Source: a virus
Lineage: Duplodnaviria; Heunggongvirae; Uroviricota; Caudoviricetes
Reading direction: 5' to 3' (one strand)
DNA: 64,000 bases
Virus record (IMG/VR): IMGVR_UViG_3300045988_147305
A program made the position numbers and the translations under genes. The notes under the pieces were generated by a model. The model made no database searches. It was not told where the DNA came from and was given only the letters and a program-made list of their open reading frames with translations. Below, one piece after another: positions 2,401-63,427 of the stretch (positions are counted from its first letter, which is position 1; the number at the start of each line of letters is the position of its first letter).

Positions 2401-3830
2401 TCCTCCTCATACGAAATATTAAAGGTGGAGTTTTCTGTATCCAGATAAACGAAATCGTAAAAGCCGTTGGACTCATTCCACTCGACAAATTCCAGATAAA
2501 AGTCGCGGAAATAACCCAGCGTTTCGATAAATGCCCAAACGTCTTTTTTCTTGATTAGGATGTACTTGCCGACACGGTTCGGATCAAAGAAAGTTGAGTC
2601 ACGCCCAAATTTTGTTTCCAGTGCCGACTTCAGCTCATCAGTCACGTTCTCAATGGTCAGGCTTGCCGATATCCGCCCAGTGATGGTGATCTTAAAGGGT
2701 AGTTTTCTGACCTCTTTATACGAGAATTTCTTGTTCAACTCATTCGGCACCTTCTTAAAGGCAGCCAGGATCATTTCTTCAAGCTCTGACTGGCTTTTGT
2801 TTGGATGCCATCCTGAAATAAATATCTTATTGATATTCCGAACATTATAAGCACCATCTAATTTCTCTTGCTGGCCTTCGCCCCATGCCTTTACCCAGGA
2901 CAGTCCCGGGATGTTACGCACCAGAAAATACGTATAGTCCCCGCCCCATACGACCTGATCATCATAGGCAAGGTAATATTGTGCACGATTACGTGTGATC
3001 TCCGTTGTTTCGGCATCGGTACCTGCGGTTATGGGTGTCGTTGTCTTAACTGAAATCAAATTAGCTAAATTAGCCGCAGAATCGACAGGAGTCAGGTTTT
3101 GGCCAGCAACCAGGGTTATATCTCCGTTGGTGCACCATACCTTAAGTGTAATGGTCGAGCCTTCTGGCGGTATTTGCCCAATTAGCCCATCACCGAATCG
3201 AACCCCCAACTGCTCGGATGGCTTATAAAACTCAACGTAGACCTGGCTTTTACTACCGGCTAACCGGAACATAGTGCTGGAAGACCACTGCGTGGTCTTA
3301 CCATCGGTCGTCACGAATACTTCCAGCTTATAGCAGACAGCAGTGAGAGCCTTTGATAACACGACTTCCAGAAATTCTTTGGCTGCCGTAACGGTATATG
3401 TCACCTCCTGGATTTCCAACTGTGCCACTTCTACCGTACCGGTGCCGTCAACCAACCTGCATACATCCATAGTCATGTAAGGGTACTGGTCGTCAGATAT
3501 TAAAGGCGTGTTTTTGGGGATTACCGCTGGAGCATCTTCACTTGTGGCTGTGATCTCAACCATCCCGGATGACGGTGTTGGCTTGGTACCAACGTAACTA
3601 TTCGTTTCTGCCGCTGCCAGGATAGAGGAACGCCGCGTCGCGGTCGATATAAAGCCTTCAGCCAGCGCCGCATCGGCATACTGAAAGCACCTGTAGACAA
3701 TCTGGGTAATAAACAATGTCAGCATCGAGACAAATTGAGAGCCGACAAACTTCGACCAGAATGAATCTTTCTCGACAAGCTCTTCAAACTCTGCACGAAT
3801 ACTGTCTTTAGTCGGTGTTGTTTTACTCAT
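2397..3830 (-). CDS. Baseplate J-like protein
   Basis: 477-aa ORF between a GPW-like gene and tail fibre genes, the typical myovirus baseplate order. Confidence 0.55.
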   Translation of the reverse strand: MSKTTPTKDSIRAEFEELVEKDSFWSKFVGSQFVSMLTLFITQIVYRCFQYADAALAEGFISTATRRSSILAAAETNSYVGTKPTPSSGMVEITATSEDAPAVIPKNTPLISDDQYPYMTMDVCRLVDGTGTVEVAQLEIQEVTYTVTAAKEFLEVVLSKALTAVCYKLEVFVTTDGKTTQWSSSTMFRLAGSKSQVYVEFYKPSEQLGVRFGDGLIGQIPPEGSTITLKVWCTNGDITLVAGQNLTPVDSAANLANLISVKTTTPITAGTDAETTEITRNRAQYYLAYDDQVVWGGDYTYFLVRNIPGLSWVKAWGEGQQEKLDGAYNVRNINKIFISGWHPNKSQSELEEMILAAFKKVPNELNKKFSYKEVRKLPFKITITGRISASLTIENVTDELKSALETKFGRDSTFFDPNRVGKYILIKKKDVWAFIETLGYFRDFYLEFVEWNESNGFYDFVYLDTENSTFNISYEEE

Positions 3831-4186: not shown

Positions 4187-7100
4187 TCAACTCTCGCGTA
4201 GTCATTCATCAACGGATCATCAATTGACAGTGGCACCGTGCGCATAACGCCCGGTTGAGGCGTGCTGACCTTTACGACAGTTCCCTGGCCTTTCGCCGAG
4301 TCTTTAGTGTGCTCTTCAATCCTGGCAAGCAATGAGGTCATCTGCGCAAACAGCCGCTTCGTTTCACCATCAAGTGAAACGGTATTATCAGCCAACTGCA
4401 TTGTCGGCTTGGCACCGGAGCCGCCAAGGTCACTAATAACCTGTCCGTCTATCTGCATACGACCGGTTGGTTGCTGCAAATCGTTGGCGGCAGTCGTCAC
4501 CAGGGACGTGGAGGCTGGTTCAGGCGCATTATTTTTCCGCATCCCCGGCGAGTTGCGGAGTTTATCGAATAGTCCATCAATCCCCATTTGTGCGCCGAGT
4601 TGGTCAAAGTAACTTGAGTTGCTGGCCACCGGACGCGCCTCTTCAACTGGCATCGGAGTATCAACATACACATTGCCAGCTGCTGTTGCGGTCCCCTTCC
4701 CTCGTGCACGTTCTTCGAGCGTTCCCTGAACGACTTCCCGACGCATACCCCGGCCATTCATGAATTTGTTGACCAGATCGTTAACACCAACAGCATTGCC
4801 AATTTTGTCTACCAGACCGCCTTTCTCAAACGGGCTATCACCAGGGGTAAACGCCAGGCCAGTAGACTGATCGATAACAGCGTTATCAGGCAGCTTTTCG
4901 TGAATTGCTGGTGCGCTATGATCTACCTTAGAGCCATAAACGGCACCATTATTGAGCATCTGCTGATACCCTCTGACACGAGTAACATATTCGCCGGTAC
5001 CGGCGACTACTCTCCCCTTATCAACATGCCCCATACCAGCATGATAGGCAGCTATTGCACGACCCTGATCACCGTTATAACGGTTCATCAGCATACTTAG
5101 GTATCTGGCGGCACCATCAGCTGCTTTTCGTGTATCCATGGCATCAGCATCGCTGAGTCCAAGATCCTCCCTTGTACCTTTAGTGATCTGAAAAGCCCCA
5201 AGGGCAGATGAAAGTTTGTTCCCGTTTTTGTCTACTGGATTTCCAGTTCTCTGGCCTGCACTAGACTCTGCGGATGCAACTGCTGACAGAATCCCTTTTT
5301 CAAGCCCATACTTACGTTCAAGCTCATCAAAATAATCGGCATTGTCAGAAATCCATTGGTATCCGGCAGCATTTAATTTTGGCAAAGAAACATCCTTGCC
5401 ATTGTTAAATCGACGTTTATCTATCTCATATGCACTTAATGCTTCCTCCTTACCTGTAGCAGACTGGCCCAAGGCAGCATCAATTGTTTGTGCTGCTTTA
5501 TTTCCTGTTTCTACGGCATTTGCATTGATAATCTGATTAGCAGTTTCTTTAACTGTTTTATTGCTATCTTTCGCCATATCCAGGGCCGCATTTATCACGC
5601 GAGCAGCAATATTAGTCTGTTTGGCATCGGATTCAGCTTTAGAATCAGATGTCCCCTGCTGGCTATTAACCGGAGCTTTTAACTCTGGAGTGATTTCTTT
5701 CGCATTAGCCTCGCCGATCGGATTGGGTATTTTTGATACAATCATTGCCGCAGGGGTATTTTTAACGGCATCAACCGCTGCATCTAATGCTTTACCTGGT
5801 AAATTTTTAACCCCATCCCAAATATTACTAGCTGCCTCTTTAATGTGTTTCCCTGGGTTCTTAATGAAATCAATTGCACTATCAATTGCATCACTGAAAA
5901 CCTGTTTCAGGTTATCGACAGTAAAGAAGTCTTTGATGGCATCCAGCTTTTCAAGCAGCTTATTAGATGTATCGCTAAACCATGCTGAAACAGCATCACC
6001 AATCTTTGCTGTGTAATCATCGAACTTGGTAGAAATGGTGTCGCCAAGGTTAGAAATATATGTTTCTAAGTTGGTAATCCCACTATCAATGGCCTGGGCA
6101 ATACTTTCCGTCGAAAATGATTGCAACATATTGCCGATATCCTCAAATCCAAGTGATTTGAGAGCCTCACCAATGGCGCTGCTAATACCAGATACCAGTC
6201 CCCCCATATCAAGAACATTAGCTAACGTATAAGCGGCTTTTTGCTGGAATGATGGATCTTGTCCTGATTTAAGCCCAAACGCTCGACGTTGCGTTTCTGT
6301 ATCATTCCAACCGGTTACCGCATCATAAATACCTCCAGCCACTGTGCCGACTAGGGGAATTGCGCGTAACGCCCCTTTACCAACTGCCTTTAATCCAAGT
6401 TTACCTGCTGCCCGGGCAGCCAAATCTCCGCCTTCATGGGCGAGAGTCTTCTTGCCACCACCGCGTAGCATTCCTACAAGTTTCTTTGCCCCCAGAGCGC
6501 CAAAAGCGAGTGCTCCAGCTTTTTTCAGCATGCCACGCCCCATTAACAACGACGCGACGCCACCGGCCCCCTTCCCTAACAGGCTAAATAGTTTGGACAG
6601 CAAGCCGCCCTTCTTTTTCCCGGTGTTTTTGGCTATCTGATCAAGGGCGCTGAGAATCTTGTCATTGCCCTCTTTAATTTCGCTGGTCTGCTCCTGAAGT
6701 TCCTGAACCGTCCGTTTTTGGGTGTTAACCTGAACGACATCGGCACTATTTTGCGATTTACGCCTAAAAAAACCTTTTCTACGGCTGTTATCGTCATTGC
6801 CACGAATCACATCGGCAATAGACTTTCTGGCACCATTAAGCGATCCACCAACTTCTTTTGATATCCCGCCAAGCTCCTTCCCTGCTGCCCACAATGGACC
6901 AGCAACGGCATAACCTAACGCATCGACGGCACGAGTCTCTGAAGGGTTACCTATGCCTTCAGCTACTTTTGACAGTTTTTTTAATAAACCTGATTCAGCA
7001 TTTAGACGCTCATCATCCTCTTTGCGCCTGGCCTTTTCAGCACGTTCAGCACGGGCATCTTCCGCTGCGGCCTTACTCCCTGACTTTCCAATAAAACGAC

Positions 7101-11582: not shown

Positions 11583-11599
11583 AATGCTCTAATAAATTT
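11583..11599 (+). promoter_or_regulatory. C1 repressor operator (Op51-like)
   Basis: AATGCTCTAATAAATTT matches the P1 C1 operator consensus. Confidence 0.7.
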
Positions 11600-43560: not shown

Positions 43561-43723
43561 AATAATAAATTAATTAGTGCATGTGCGCTCTTTGTGGTAG
43601 TGCACTTTAACATCGGGAGAATAATCGTGTCATCCAAGGTTAATTATGAGTCGCTGGCATCGGTCATGCCGCGTAATGAACAGGAAACAGATGCTGTAGT
43701 GGACCCTGTAATCGCTGAAATGA

Positions 43724-44910: not shown

Positions 44911-45584
44911 TGGCACCCACAATTTATCACCGTATCGACGGTACCAAATACAGGAATGTCTGGGTTGTTGGTGATCTGCATGGTTGCTACACCAGACTGA
45001 TGTCCGAACTCCATCGTGTGGATTTTGACCCGGCGCAGGATTTACTGATATCGGTCGGCGACCTTATCGATCGCGGTACTGAAAATGTCGAATGTCTGGA
45101 ACTATTGCAGATGCCCTGGTTCAGGGCAGTGATGGGGAACCATGAGCGGCTGATGATTGATGCGTTAAGTCCAGATGGCAACGTGAATAACTGGCTAATG
45201 AATGGCGGACAATGGTTCTTCATGCTGGACACTGATCAGGAAATATTAGCCTGGGCGCTGGTGGAGCTGGTAAAGCGTCTGCCCTATATCATTGAGTTGA
45301 ACACCGGGCAAGAAACTATCGTTATAGCCCATGCCGACTATCCGGATAATGAATACCAATTCGGTAAGGAGGTGCCGCTTTTCAACGTTGTCTGGGCGCG
45401 CGAGCGTATCAGTGATTCGATGGATGATATTGGTGGCGAAATTTCGGGCGCAGATCGTTTTATCTTTGGTCACACTCCGGTGAAAAGCCCGAAGACATTC
45501 TGGAATCAGCAGTATATCGACACTGGTGCCGTATTTTGCGGAAACCTGACATTGATGAAAGTGAAAGGTGATGGTGCAGCATGA
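44892..45584 (+). CDS. pap: Ser/Thr protein phosphatase (lambda PPase-like; Pap)
   Basis: Calcineurin-like metallophosphatase motifs GDLHG, GDLIDRG, GNHE. Confidence 0.8.
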
Positions 45585-46282
45585 AGATTGCTTTAGTTTT
45601 TCGCTCTGGTGGTGACTATAACGCTTCCGATGTGCAGTGGCTGGTTAATCAACTGCCAAAAGACTATGAAATTATTTGCCTGACAGACCTGAAGTGTTTA
45701 CATGTACCTGGCGTCAAAGTTATCCCATTGATCAACCAGTGGCAAAAGTGCCGTGGCTGGTGGGCGAAAATCGAGTTGTTCCGACCGGATATAACCGATG
45801 ATCTGTTCTATCTGGATTTGGACACGGTTATTGCCGGTGATATACGCCCAATCCTAGAGCATCCACCAACCAGCTTCACCATGCTTAGGGATTTTTACCA
45901 TCCACAATATCGTGGCAGCGGTGCCCTGTGGATACCAAATAGTGTTAAAGCGCATATCTGGAGTTCATTCTGGCAAGATCCGGAAGGTTGGATTTCTCGT
46001 TGTGTCACTACTGAGTGCTGGGGTGACCAGGGGTTCTTACGAAAGGTTATGGGCGATGATACACCAGCATTTCAGGATCTGTATCCAGGATGGTTTGTAA
46101 GTTACAAGGCCGATGTTGTGGAACCTGGTTCAAAATATGCGAGCGCGCGTTACTCCAGGGGGAATGGGACATTACCAAAAGACTGCCGAATAATCTTTTT
46201 CCACGGCAAACCGCGACCTCGCGAAGTGTCAGAGGATTGGCTTCCCCTTATCAGCTCATTTTTTGAGCGAGAATCAGAATAA
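45581..46282 (+). CDS. GT-A-like nucleotide-sugar transferase (DxD motif)
   Basis: 233 aa with YLDLDTV. Confidence 0.45.
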
Positions 46283-46283
46283 T

Positions 46284-46349
46284 ATTGCTCTAATAATTCC
46301 ATATTTTTAAAACGTGATGTACACTCATCACGTTTTTTATTAGAGCAAT
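46284..46349. promoter_or_regulatory. Two inverted C1 operators flanking a terminator hairpin
   Basis: ATTGCTCTAATAATTCC (46284-46300), hairpin AACGTGATG/CATCACGTT plus T-run (46309-46340), reverse-complement ATTGCTCTAATAAAA (46335-46349). Confidence 0.65.
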
Positions 46350-46363
46350 CTACAAGGTGCACT

Positions 46364-46582
46364 ATGTGGCCATTCCGACGGAAATATCACTACTGGCTGA
46401 TCGCCTTTGTTACGCCGACCGGCGGTATCAGGCATGTCATCACCAGGTATCGCAACAAGAGACTCACCTTAGCCAGAATTTTACAGGCTGCCATAGGTGA
46501 GGGACTGGATACAAATTGCGTAGTCCTTCCTCCTTCATACTTAGGAAAAATGACCGAAGCACAAGCTAATACGGAACTTTGA
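46364..46582 (+). CDS. Small hypothetical protein
   Basis: 72-aa ORF directly after the operator pair. Confidence 0.35.
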   Translation: MWPFRRKYHYWLIAFVTPTGGIRHVITRYRNKRLTLARILQAAIGEGLDTNCVVLPPSYLGKMTEAQANTEL

Positions 46583-46583
46583 A

Positions 46584-47846
46584 ATGAGCACTTCAGCACA
46601 AAACCAATCAATCGAAAATGTATGTATCCCTGATGTCCTGAATGCCGGTATCCCGGCCATTATCCAGAACATCCGGGCCGCGCAACGCCGCGTTAGTTGT
46701 GATGACCTCACAGCACGTTTTTTTGATAATGCGGTTCAGTCAGCGGAGATGCTTCACGCACAGCTTATTGATGTTTATAACGCAGAAGCTGATAGCCATA
46801 ACTCCCTGGTAGATGCAGCTGAAAATATGCAGTTGGATCTCGGTCTGAAGGGTAAAGAAATTGAAGAGCTTCAGCTGGAAATTGAACATTTGAAACGCCA
46901 GCAACAGGACGCGATCGACGATGCGACGCATGACGCCAACCAGCGTGCTGATAATGCCGAACGTATAAGCATTGAGCTGGAAACAAAACTCAATGAAATG
47001 ACCGCGATGGTTGAACTGCGGAACTCACAGATTTCAACGCTAAAATCTCAATATAAAGAGATCATGAAACTTGATCCTTTTAACCTTGAGAAACGCTATA
47101 ACAAAGCTAAAAGCGAGCGACAGGAACTGCGTAAGCAGGTCGCCGACCTTAACCAACAGCTCAAAAAAACTATTAAAGATGCAAGCGAGGCGCGCGTGGC
47201 ATTTGCTAATAAAAAAGCAGAGGTTACCGCGCTGGTTAATGAGAATGCCAAATTTGCGACGCTCAAGAAGGAAATGTATGGCATTACTGAGCGCCGTTTC
47301 CCTGCAAGCAAACTTCATCCGACGTTAGGGCAAATCTCCTTCTTCCCGCGCCTCCTGGCTTATGGGATCTCATCGCCTAAAGAGTTCAATAACGAGCGTC
47401 CTTATATCGTTTCTAAGCTGGACTTTGCTTATCAGTTCTGCTGCGACATGGGCTATGCCATTGATATCCGAATCAACGAATGGTTGATGCCAAACTTCCA
47501 GCCGTTGGCAATTTTCCGCGAGTTCCAGCCGGAAGGTTGGGTAGAGTTCTTCCATGAATTGATCTGTAAAGAGATGGAAAGCCGTCGCCCGGAATTGGTC
47601 CGTCGAGTTGAGTGGGCGCAAGAGGTTATGTTGGCAGATGCAGAGCTGCCGTTCGAACCGGAATTCATTGATGATCTGGCAACTAAAGGGCTGCATACCC
47701 TGTTTGATGTGGTTACCCGCCGTCATGAGCAGTTGGTTGTCGAATTGGGTTTAGAGGAAACTGCGGCAAGAAGACTTCTCGATGTTTGCTATGCACGTAG
47801 CGATGCATGGGAAAAAGAGAACGGCGGCACTATTTACGTTCGCTGA
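46584..47846 (+). CDS. Coiled-coil protein of unknown function
   Basis: 420 aa; long predicted coiled coil at residues about 60-220. Confidence 0.45.
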   Translation: MSTSAQNQSIENVCIPDVLNAGIPAIIQNIRAAQRRVSCDDLTARFFDNAVQSAEMLHAQLIDVYNAEADSHNSLVDAAENMQLDLGLKGKEIEELQLEIEHLKRQQQDAIDDATHDANQRADNAERISIELETKLNEMTAMVELRNSQISTLKSQYKEIMKLDPFNLEKRYNKAKSERQELRKQVADLNQQLKKTIKDASEARVAFANKKAEVTALVNENAKFATLKKEMYGITERRFPASKLHPTLGQISFFPRLLAYGISSPKEFNNERPYIVSKLDFAYQFCCDMGYAIDIRINEWLMPNFQPLAIFREFQPEGWVEFFHELICKEMESRRPELVRRVEWAQEVMLADAELPFEPEFIDDLATKGLHTLFDVVTRRHEQLVVELGLEETAARRLLDVCYARSDAWEKENGGTIYVR

Positions 47847-47918
47847 TAGTTACAGTGTCACTTTTAATGCTGGTGGAGTGCTCCCACCAGCATTTTTTTC
47901 GTCCAATGAGGAGGGCAT

Positions 47919-48441: not shown

Positions 48442-48619
48442 TGATTTTTAAAACAGAGAAAGTGAAAATAAAAACATGCCGTAAGGCGCGGCATGTATCC
48501 AATCAATCACAGGAGCTGAAAATATGAACACGGCATTCAAAATCATTATGGCCGCGATCTATTTCTGGCTGTTCTCTATCACTTTTGGCGGCATCGTCGC
48601 ACATGGGTAAGGGGGATGC

Positions 48620-62575: not shown

Positions 62576-63427
62576 CTATTGCGCGCTTTCGGGGTTGTCG
62601 TTTACCGGCTGCCCCTTCTTAGTTTTACGGCTGCGCGTAACTGATGCGGCTGATTTGACCTTTTTCTCTTCGCGAGTGATGGCAATTTGTTTTTTTACAT
62701 TTTCAATATCTGCCAGGCGATATATTTTTGCCTGCGGCCAGCGGTCGCAGATGATCGGTTCTATAGAGTCATAAAGGCTAAATTTTGCTTTCTCGAATTC
62801 ACCGTTGATGATGATTCCATCACGGAGAGTTTCATCGCAGATAAACACACCACACAGCGGCACATGGTAACTAACTGATTTACCATCATTGTAGTTAGGG
62901 CTACTGGAAATGTAGTGGACGCGCAGCATTGTTTCGCTAAAGCCGTGTACACGCATACGGAATTTTTCATCCTCCGGGTACTGCTTCATTAGCTCTTTTG
63001 TTGCTTCCAGGTTCTCTATGTATTTCGCACTGTGCTCATTGATCCCCGCGCTTTTCTGGATGCGAATGTCCTTATCAATCAGATGAATAATGCGGCCAGC
63101 GGTCATGTTGACGCTGTTCACAGCTTCTGTCTGATAAGTTGTAACCTTACGCACACCGCGAAGGATGTTAGGCACTGGATATAAAATAGTCTTTGGGATA
63201 TTGAGGTCTGGGTACTGTTCCAGTTCCCGCGCCATTAAAGTCCATTTATCAATTTCAGCCTGAATGCTGTCCGTTTCTTTGAACGGCAGAACGACAACCG
63301 GGCGAACAGGACGACCGTCGCTGGCGGCATCAACGTGTTGGGCGCGTGCAACAGCTTTTTTTAGAAAGAGATCCCTGAAGCTGACGAACTCCTGGTACAG
63401 TTGTTCGCCGTAGACATAATTTATCAT
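62576..63427 (-). CDS. c1: C1 repressor of lysogeny
   Basis: 283 aa, N-terminus MINYVYGEQLYQEF; operator-like sites upstream; cognate operators across the window. Confidence 0.8.
   Translation of the reverse strand: MINYVYGEQLYQEFVSFRDLFLKKAVARAQHVDAASDGRPVRPVVVLPFKETDSIQAEIDKWTLMARELEQYPDLNIPKTILYPVPNILRGVRKVTTYQTEAVNSVNMTAGRIIHLIDKDIRIQKSAGINEHSAKYIENLEATKELMKQYPEDEKFRMRVHGFSETMLRVHYISSSPNYNDGKSVSYHVPLCGVFICDETLRDGIIINGEFEKAKFSLYDSIEPIICDRWPQAKIYRLADIENVKKQIAITREEKKVKSAASVTRSRKTKKGQPVNDNPESAQ

Follow-up and report, generated by a model that had tools for sequence, protein, structure and literature searches.

Two inverted C1 operators enclose a terminator-like hairpin in the Op86 control region between pmgQ and pmgR of a P1-like phage-plasmid

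The window (the whole stretch of 64,000 nucleotides that was analysed) is a P1-like phage-plasmid, and around the element described here (1.5 kb, 45500-47000) it is 99.3-99.8% identical to P1, P7 and JL22, the values being 99.8% for JL22, 99.3% for P1 and 99.3-99.5% for P1 and P7 together. The element occupies 66 bp (46284-46349) between pmgQ, whose TAA stop codon lies at 46280-46282, and pmgR, an ORF of 72 aa that starts with the ATG at 46364 and has an AAGGT ribosome-binding site ahead of it. Its plus strand reads ATTGCTCTAATAATTCC-ATATTTTT-AAAACGTGATG-TACACT-CATCACGTTTT-TT-ATTAGAGCAAT. The c1 gene, which encodes the trans-acting partner of the operators, is also found in the window, and its product is identical to P1 C1.100 except for one residue. 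The features of the locus are the following, with their sources in brackets:

45581-46282, plus strand: pmgQ (233 aa), last gene of the pmgN-pmgO-pmgP-ppp-pmgQ operon (ORF list; P1/P7 annotation)
46284-46300, plus strand: C1 operator Op86a = OpmgRa, ATTGCTCTAATAATTCC (P1/P7 protein_bind "phage repressor C1"; weight matrix)
46285-46313, plus strand: annotated predicted sigma-70 promoter PpmgR, -35 TTGCTC (46285-46290) and -10 TAAAAC (46308-46313) (AF234172)
46297-46325, plus strand: alternative promoter candidate, -35 TTCCAT (46297-46302) and -10 TACACT (46320-46325) (hexamer scan)
46309-46338, plus strand: hairpin and T6 (46333-46338), intrinsic-terminator-like for transcripts coming from pmgQ (fold; terminator score)
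46333-46349, minus strand: C1 operator Op86b = OpmgRb, ATTGCTCTAATAAAAAA on the minus strand (P1/P7 annotation; weight matrix)
46354-46582, plus strand: pmgR region (ORF list; PMC9024508)
46584-47846, plus strand: pmgS (420 aa), second gene of the Op86a/b operon (ORF list; P1 annotation)
62576-63427, minus strand: c1 repressor gene (283 aa), trans-acting operator partner (ORF comparison with P1)

Judged by its sequence, the element is the orthologue of the P1 Op86a/Op86b pair, a member of the same family beyond mere similarity, and the pair itself is already known, having been part of the public annotation since 2004. In the P1 record (AF234172) the sites appear as OpmgRa (82152-82168, plus strand) and OpmgRb (82201-82217, minus strand), formerly Op86a and Op86b, each described as a "monovalent C1-controlled operator", and an accompanying note, with no experiment cited there, states that they control the expression of pmgR and pmgS. 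The notes of this record cite an earlier deposited fragment for Op88 and none for Op86. In the P7 record the equivalent two sites are annotated under the names Op(sht[a]) and Op(sht[b]). P1, P7 and the window have this locus in common, with the same orientation and the same flanking genes (pmgQ on one side, pmgR-pmgS on the other), and there is no difference of substance between the element and its P1 and P7 counterparts. AF234172 also carries the "predicted" promoter PpmgR, whose -35 hexamer TTGCTC falls inside Op86a, and no terminator features are present in the four stretches of that record that were inspected (this locus and others elsewhere). Regarding the neighbouring proteins, PmgQ is labelled as a glycosyltransferase in RefSeq; no Pfam match was obtained for it at E <= 0.01, and hence none for the "GT-A-like" label that the sequence-only reading had given it. 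Pap, encoded downstream, matched a PNKP-type HAD phosphatase domain (E = 3e-11).

The presence of two inverted C1 operators at this place, as claimed in the sequence-only reading, agrees with the P1 and P7 annotation and with a perfect outer inverted repeat detected by a repeat finder, formed by ATTGCTCTAATAA (46284-46296) and TTATTAGAGCAAT (46337-46349), 13 nt in length and 100% complementary, with 40 nt between them. Searching the window for the C1 consensus ATTGCTCTAATAAATTT with up to three mismatches yielded 11 matches versus 0.25 expected, a number that was reached in none of 100 shuffles. Op86a and Op86b each match the consensus at 14 of its 17 positions, with a perfect 13-nt core and the three mismatches within the last four positions; the annotated Op94, operator of Plpa and not labelled as "predicted", is likewise three mismatches away from the consensus. 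Moreover, when an operator weight matrix trained on nine other sites was used to rank the ~128,000 positions of the window, 46284 (plus strand) came 10th with 19.8 bits and 46333 (minus strand) 11th with 16.4 bits. Both sites are annotated as P1-type C1 operators in opposite orientation, and from their sequences we infer that they are likely to bind C1. The distance between them is 49 bp from centre to centre, and they do not show the inverted overlap within ~28 bp that characterizes a bivalent operator; each of them is annotated as monovalent.

The same searches provided some observations on other sites of the window. The annotated Op83/Oppp (CATGCACTAATTAATTT, 43567-43583, minus strand) was missed by the three-mismatch consensus search and ranked 12th with the weight matrix, and the consensus search also matched position 42660 on the minus strand (ATTGCACTAATAATTTT). 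Downstream of most C1 operators, and always at the same distance, there is a common extension of ~7 T-rich bases and then TAAGTC, TAAGTG, TATGTC or TAAAAC. Operators with such an extension are found at 11583, 13253, 28704, 46284 and 48425 on the plus strand, and also at 42660 on the minus strand. This shared extension could represent a common -10 hexamer placed 17 bp from TTGCTC, or else an extended operator or a bend. At Op51, the promoter P51a, recorded without the "predicted" label, uses hexamers other than those of the shared extension.

Between the two operators there is an inner inverted repeat with perfect 11-nt arms, AAAACGTGATG (46309-46319) and CATCACGTTTT (46326-46336), and a 6-nt loop, TACACT. 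The corresponding hairpin begins 27 nt past the pmgQ stop codon and ends in a terminator-like U-tract whose template is the A-run of Op86b. Its predicted folding energy as RNA is -13.4 kcal/mol (z = -6.0), and that of the whole 66-nt RNA is -26.9 kcal/mol (z = -9.7), with a stem of 13 + 11 bp and a 12-nt bulge. In an ad hoc scan, this hairpin was among only six plus-strand terminator-like hairpins in the 64 kb, and 20 shuffles gave a total of four. The terminator score d, calculated after d'Aubenton-Carafa 1990, was +10.7 for the plus strand and -20.7 for the minus strand of the window, and the sequence features of a rho-independent terminator are present on the plus strand only. In position and sequence, the hairpin agrees with the rho-independent terminator proposed earlier between the two operators. 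A standard promoter/terminator scan reported neither the hairpin nor a promoter at the element; for the hairpin, this is apparently due to four of the six T's being absorbable into an A/T extension of the stem. A search of the element against Rfam found no family, with a single chance match to a microRNA (E = 0.79). From these data we infer that the hairpin may act as the intrinsic terminator, or constitute the 3'-end hairpin, of the pmgN-pmgQ operon.

Two further hairpins were detected in the vicinity. One of them (47868-47899, plus strand), located 22 nt past the pmgS stop codon, is strong and terminator-like (TGCTGGTGGAGTGCTCCCACCAGCA followed by T7, d = 31.8). Despite it, RNA hardly decreases between pmgS and pap in published RNA-seq data, and pap has no annotated promoter ahead of it, so this junction contains either a leaky terminator or an unannotated promoter. 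As this hairpin is far stronger than that of the element and almost no RNA drop follows it, predicted terminators of P1 may be leaky. The other one (48475-48495, minus strand; CATGCCGCGCCTTACGGCATG followed by T5) is terminator-like and is found in the Op88-pmgT interval, where no minus-strand gene is annotated in the vicinity.

To compare the element among relatives, 80 P1-like viral contigs were aligned, a sample that is unbiased toward the operator because it was picked by similarity of the PmgS protein. Positions 1-15 of Op86a were invariant across the 80 contigs, and Op86b showed just two changes, a substitution seen in a single contig (46341) and an insertion of 1 nt bordering the T-run on its 5' side. 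By contrast, polymorphism is concentrated in the four positions that follow Op86b and precede the Shine-Dalgarno sequence (46350-46353), with 8, 8, 1 and 15 minor alleles, respectively, among 81 sequences. An identical 66-bp layout was found in Salmonella D6-like plasmids (L126 and L127), in L059 and in the Cronobacter phage JK004 (L003), three lineages other than P1 whose PmgS proteins are ~70% identical. The stems that differ from that of P1 in these lineages are AAAACATGGTG/CACCATGTTTT and GAAGCATGGTG/CGCCATGTTTT.

In a covariation alignment of 20 variants, 98% of the cells were paired. For the inner helix this value was 96.8%, with two compensatory pairs in which both sides had changed and 11 G·U cells, and in the outer helix (helix 1) 12 of the 13 pairs were invariant. 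Three G·U pairs of JK004 are valid in the plus-strand RNA only, and two variants that recur in P1, A46312G and A46309G, are compatible with wobble pairing, again in the plus-strand RNA only. The number of pairs changed on both sides was not significant in a shuffle control (121/500), and the covariation is statistically weak because it comes essentially from one deep split, which separates P1 from the other three. In the four lineages, the terminator score d is between +10.7 and +13.6 for the plus strand and between -18 and -63 for the minus strand, and all of them keep T6 directly after the stem. Taken together, this comparative sequence evidence modestly favours a hairpin acting at the RNA level over a mere DNA palindrome.

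A search of genome contigs for divergent lineages gave two near-identical Escherichia loci only, a profile search of viral contigs found only loci 99-100% identical to the query, a pattern search limited to non-P1 variants revealed no new lineage, and a tblastn search of plasmids with the PmgS of L059 detected none beyond the Salmonella D6-like group. A very distant, P1-like Citrobacter phage-plasmid (PmgS 25% identical) has an operator-like repeat of its own, ACMATACTAATT, an inverted pair of which is found at the equivalent position without the inner hairpin. Copies of ACMATACTAATT in the Citrobacter freundii plasmid NZ_CP056338 (L210) map at 2667-2678 (+), 2699-2710 (-), 4311-4322 (-) and 6317-6328 (+). 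These 12-mers are intergenic, at positions matching Op86 and Op88, and two of the copies are preceded by TATCATTACA; they probably serve together as the operators of a C1-type repressor that has diverged.

Published expression data also cover the pmgQ/pmgR junction. In RNA-seq of P1vir at 10 min (PMC8201110, Table S1), the logFC values for pmgQ, pmgR and pmgS were 7.05, 9.02 and 9.99 in the wild-type host and 6.23, 9.00 and 9.09 in the dksA host, pmgR and pmgS being among the strongest early genes in these data. This raw step-up of 2-3 log2 (4-8-fold) from pmgQ to pmgR and pmgS, seen in the two hosts, shows that there is an early promoter at the junction, and the strong early RNA of both genes is what would be expected of a C1-type promoter when active repressor is lacking. 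A termination signal at 10 min would be masked by this downstream promoter. At 30 min, the length-corrected value of pmgS, from gene-level counts, was below that of pmgQ by 0.8 log2 in the wild type and by 1.5 log2 in dksA, a shortfall that fits partial termination and differential mRNA stability equally. A CRISPRi map of P1 (PMC10695390) reported that knock-downs of pmgO-pmgQ were non-polar on the essential pmgR; as the knock-down of pmgR itself was scored as non-essential in that map, polarity is uninformative at this junction. A terminator-like hairpin together with an early promoter for the next operon makes the pmgQ/pmgR junction an operon boundary, as had been proposed from the sequence.

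With respect to the promoter, the sequence-only reading placed a C1-controlled promoter for the next operon downstream of the operators. The early step-up in RNA shows that a promoter exists, and its location has to be changed: as the distance from Op86b to the pmgR ATG is only 14 nt, the promoter must overlap the element rather than lie downstream of it. A sigma-70 promoter thus seems to be embedded in the DNA of the hairpin, for which there are two weak candidate pairs of hexamers. The annotated PpmgR has an implied start at ~46320, in the hairpin loop, and a crude hexamer score of 4.0; in JK004 its -10 becomes TGAAGC, and the annotated pair is outside the top six of that phage. In the second candidate the -10 hexamer is the loop itself, with a 17-bp spacer, a -35 that overlaps the 3' end of Op86a and an implied start at ~46330-46332. 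This pair ranked first in each of the four lineages (5.2 in P1, and 7.6, 9.4 and 7.6 in the others), its -10 being TACACT in P1 and TATCAT in the other three. The hexamer scan was crude, and neither candidate is significant by score, as 38% of random 116-nt windows reach 5.2. The geometry between operator and -35 in the loop candidate equals that of the annotated sigma-70 promoters P2c4 (P51a) and Plpa (P94), which are recorded without the "predicted" label. RNA starting at 46320 shows no significant structure (z = +0.9). With either candidate, the pmgR transcript would begin within the loop or the 3' arm, and would therefore lack the 5' arm of the hairpin and escape termination by it.

Other kinds of promoter were considered and rejected. 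For an Lpa-dependent late promoter, inspection by eye revealed nothing like the -22 boxes of LPhot (AAGTTACTT) or LPpac (ATGTGACTT) in 46284-46364, and there are no late promoters annotated in the surrounding 6.5 kb of the P1 record. A divergent minus-strand promoter from Op86b would have poor hexamers (AGTGTA and GTGTAC), and inspection found no minus-strand gene upstream.

The reading that we consider likely is that the 66-bp element is the Op86a/Op86b control region and combines repression, termination and a promoter in one palindrome-like unit. In the lysogen, C1 bound to both inverted monovalent 17-bp operators would silence the promoter of pmgR-pmgS, one operator covering the -35 side and the other the start site or the early transcribed region. 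Upon transcription from upstream, the hairpin and U6 located between the operators would stop the plus-strand transcripts of pmgN-pmgQ, and this termination would make pmgR-pmgS an independent unit, whose own transcript, initiated within the loop or the 3' arm, would not be terminated by the hairpin. If the loop promoter is the one used, Op86a would span approximately -48 to -32 and Op86b approximately +1 to +18, forming a clamp around the RNA polymerase. This more specific arrangement, a fused terminator-promoter in which the loop provides the -10 of pmgR, the second operator contains the template of the U-tract and C1 clamps both sides, is plausible, and we put it forward tentatively, at somewhat less than an even chance. 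If true, a single 66-bp unit would insulate and initiate under a C1 clamp, and the TTGCTC/TAAAAC promoter of the 2004 P1 annotation would be misplaced.

The main competing explanation is that the hairpin has no function as RNA, being a DNA palindrome generated by an inverted duplication of the operator and its flank, or kept symmetrical at the DNA level. The outer arms are perfect and needed anyway as operators, the covariation amounts to two pairs and one deep split, and templated repair can homogenise palindromes without selection on RNA, all of which would suit such an origin. However, the three G·T positions of JK004 break the symmetry of the DNA and pair as G·U in the plus-strand RNA only, the T6 and the positive terminator score on a single strand have been kept in four lineages, and the commonest stem variants in P1 are wobble-compatible transitions, so we regard this explanation as unlikely.

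Even lower credence is given to two other readings, one of which accepts a role in RNA and assigns it to a different process: the 24-bp interrupted stem in read-through RNA would be a processing site, for instance for RNase III, or a stability element, instead of a terminator. The stability of the 66-nt structure described above, with its 13 + 11 bp stem, and its similarity in all lineages agree with this idea, but the need for two operator copies suffices to explain the whole outer helix, in which variation is absent. As the operator copies account for the pairing and 12 of 13 pairs are invariant, this helix constitutes no independent evidence for RNA processing, and we consider a processing site very improbable. 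The reading to which we give the least credence of all is that a second, dimeric protein, from the phage or the host, binds the inner palindrome, CGTGATG...CATCACG, and acts together with C1. A perfect 11-bp inverted repeat centred between the operators, with a strict 66-bp spacing in four lineages, could be seen in this way; yet the half-site changes between lineages at two positions in both arms, with further wobble positions in JK004, whereas protein sites usually conserve sequence and not complementarity. Moreover, no further copy of the motif was noticed, and it is the loop, not the arms, that bears a conserved TAnnAT-like hexamer.

Read as a combined control region, the element can be compared with known units. 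Op51/P51a, Op94/Plpa, Op88/PpmgT and Op99d/P1coi have the same 17-bp asymmetric operator at or beside the -35 of an early sigma-70 promoter. In these single-operator units of P1 the -35 lies at operator positions 15-20, or TTGCTC serves as -35, and the downstream genes give early RNA; they have no hairpin, whereas Op86 has a second, inverted operator 49 bp downstream and a hairpin between both. The bivalent operators Op72 (ban) and Op99a/b (c1) likewise place two inverted C1 sites on one promoter, but their sites overlap, 11 bp apart, in a 28-bp near-palindrome (32226 plus strand and 32237 minus strand in the window), in contrast to the 49 bp of Op86a/b. As in canonical rho-independent terminators, the Op86 hairpin shows a 7-bp G+C-containing stem (11 bp with the A·U pairs), a 6-nt loop and U6. 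Unlike them, the template of its U-tract also serves as the 3' portion of an operator for a repressor, and its loop and 5' arm hold candidate -10 hexamers for the next promoter.

With the operator pair already annotated, what the present analysis adds is a suggestion, drawn from sequence comparison, that the hairpin is an RNA element, a geometry that requires the promoter to lie inside the element, and an alternative, conserved candidate -10 located in the loop. This represents a testable refinement of the 2004 annotation with regard to promoter position and termination at the hairpin. Its significance beyond the biology of P1 is small. For P1 itself, pmgR-pmgS would be an early unit of its own that C1 controls directly, pmgR being essential for head-tail joining. 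Given the wide use of P1 in transduction and its ongoing engineering, the 66-bp layout may be of practical use when the pmgQ/pmgR junction is edited.
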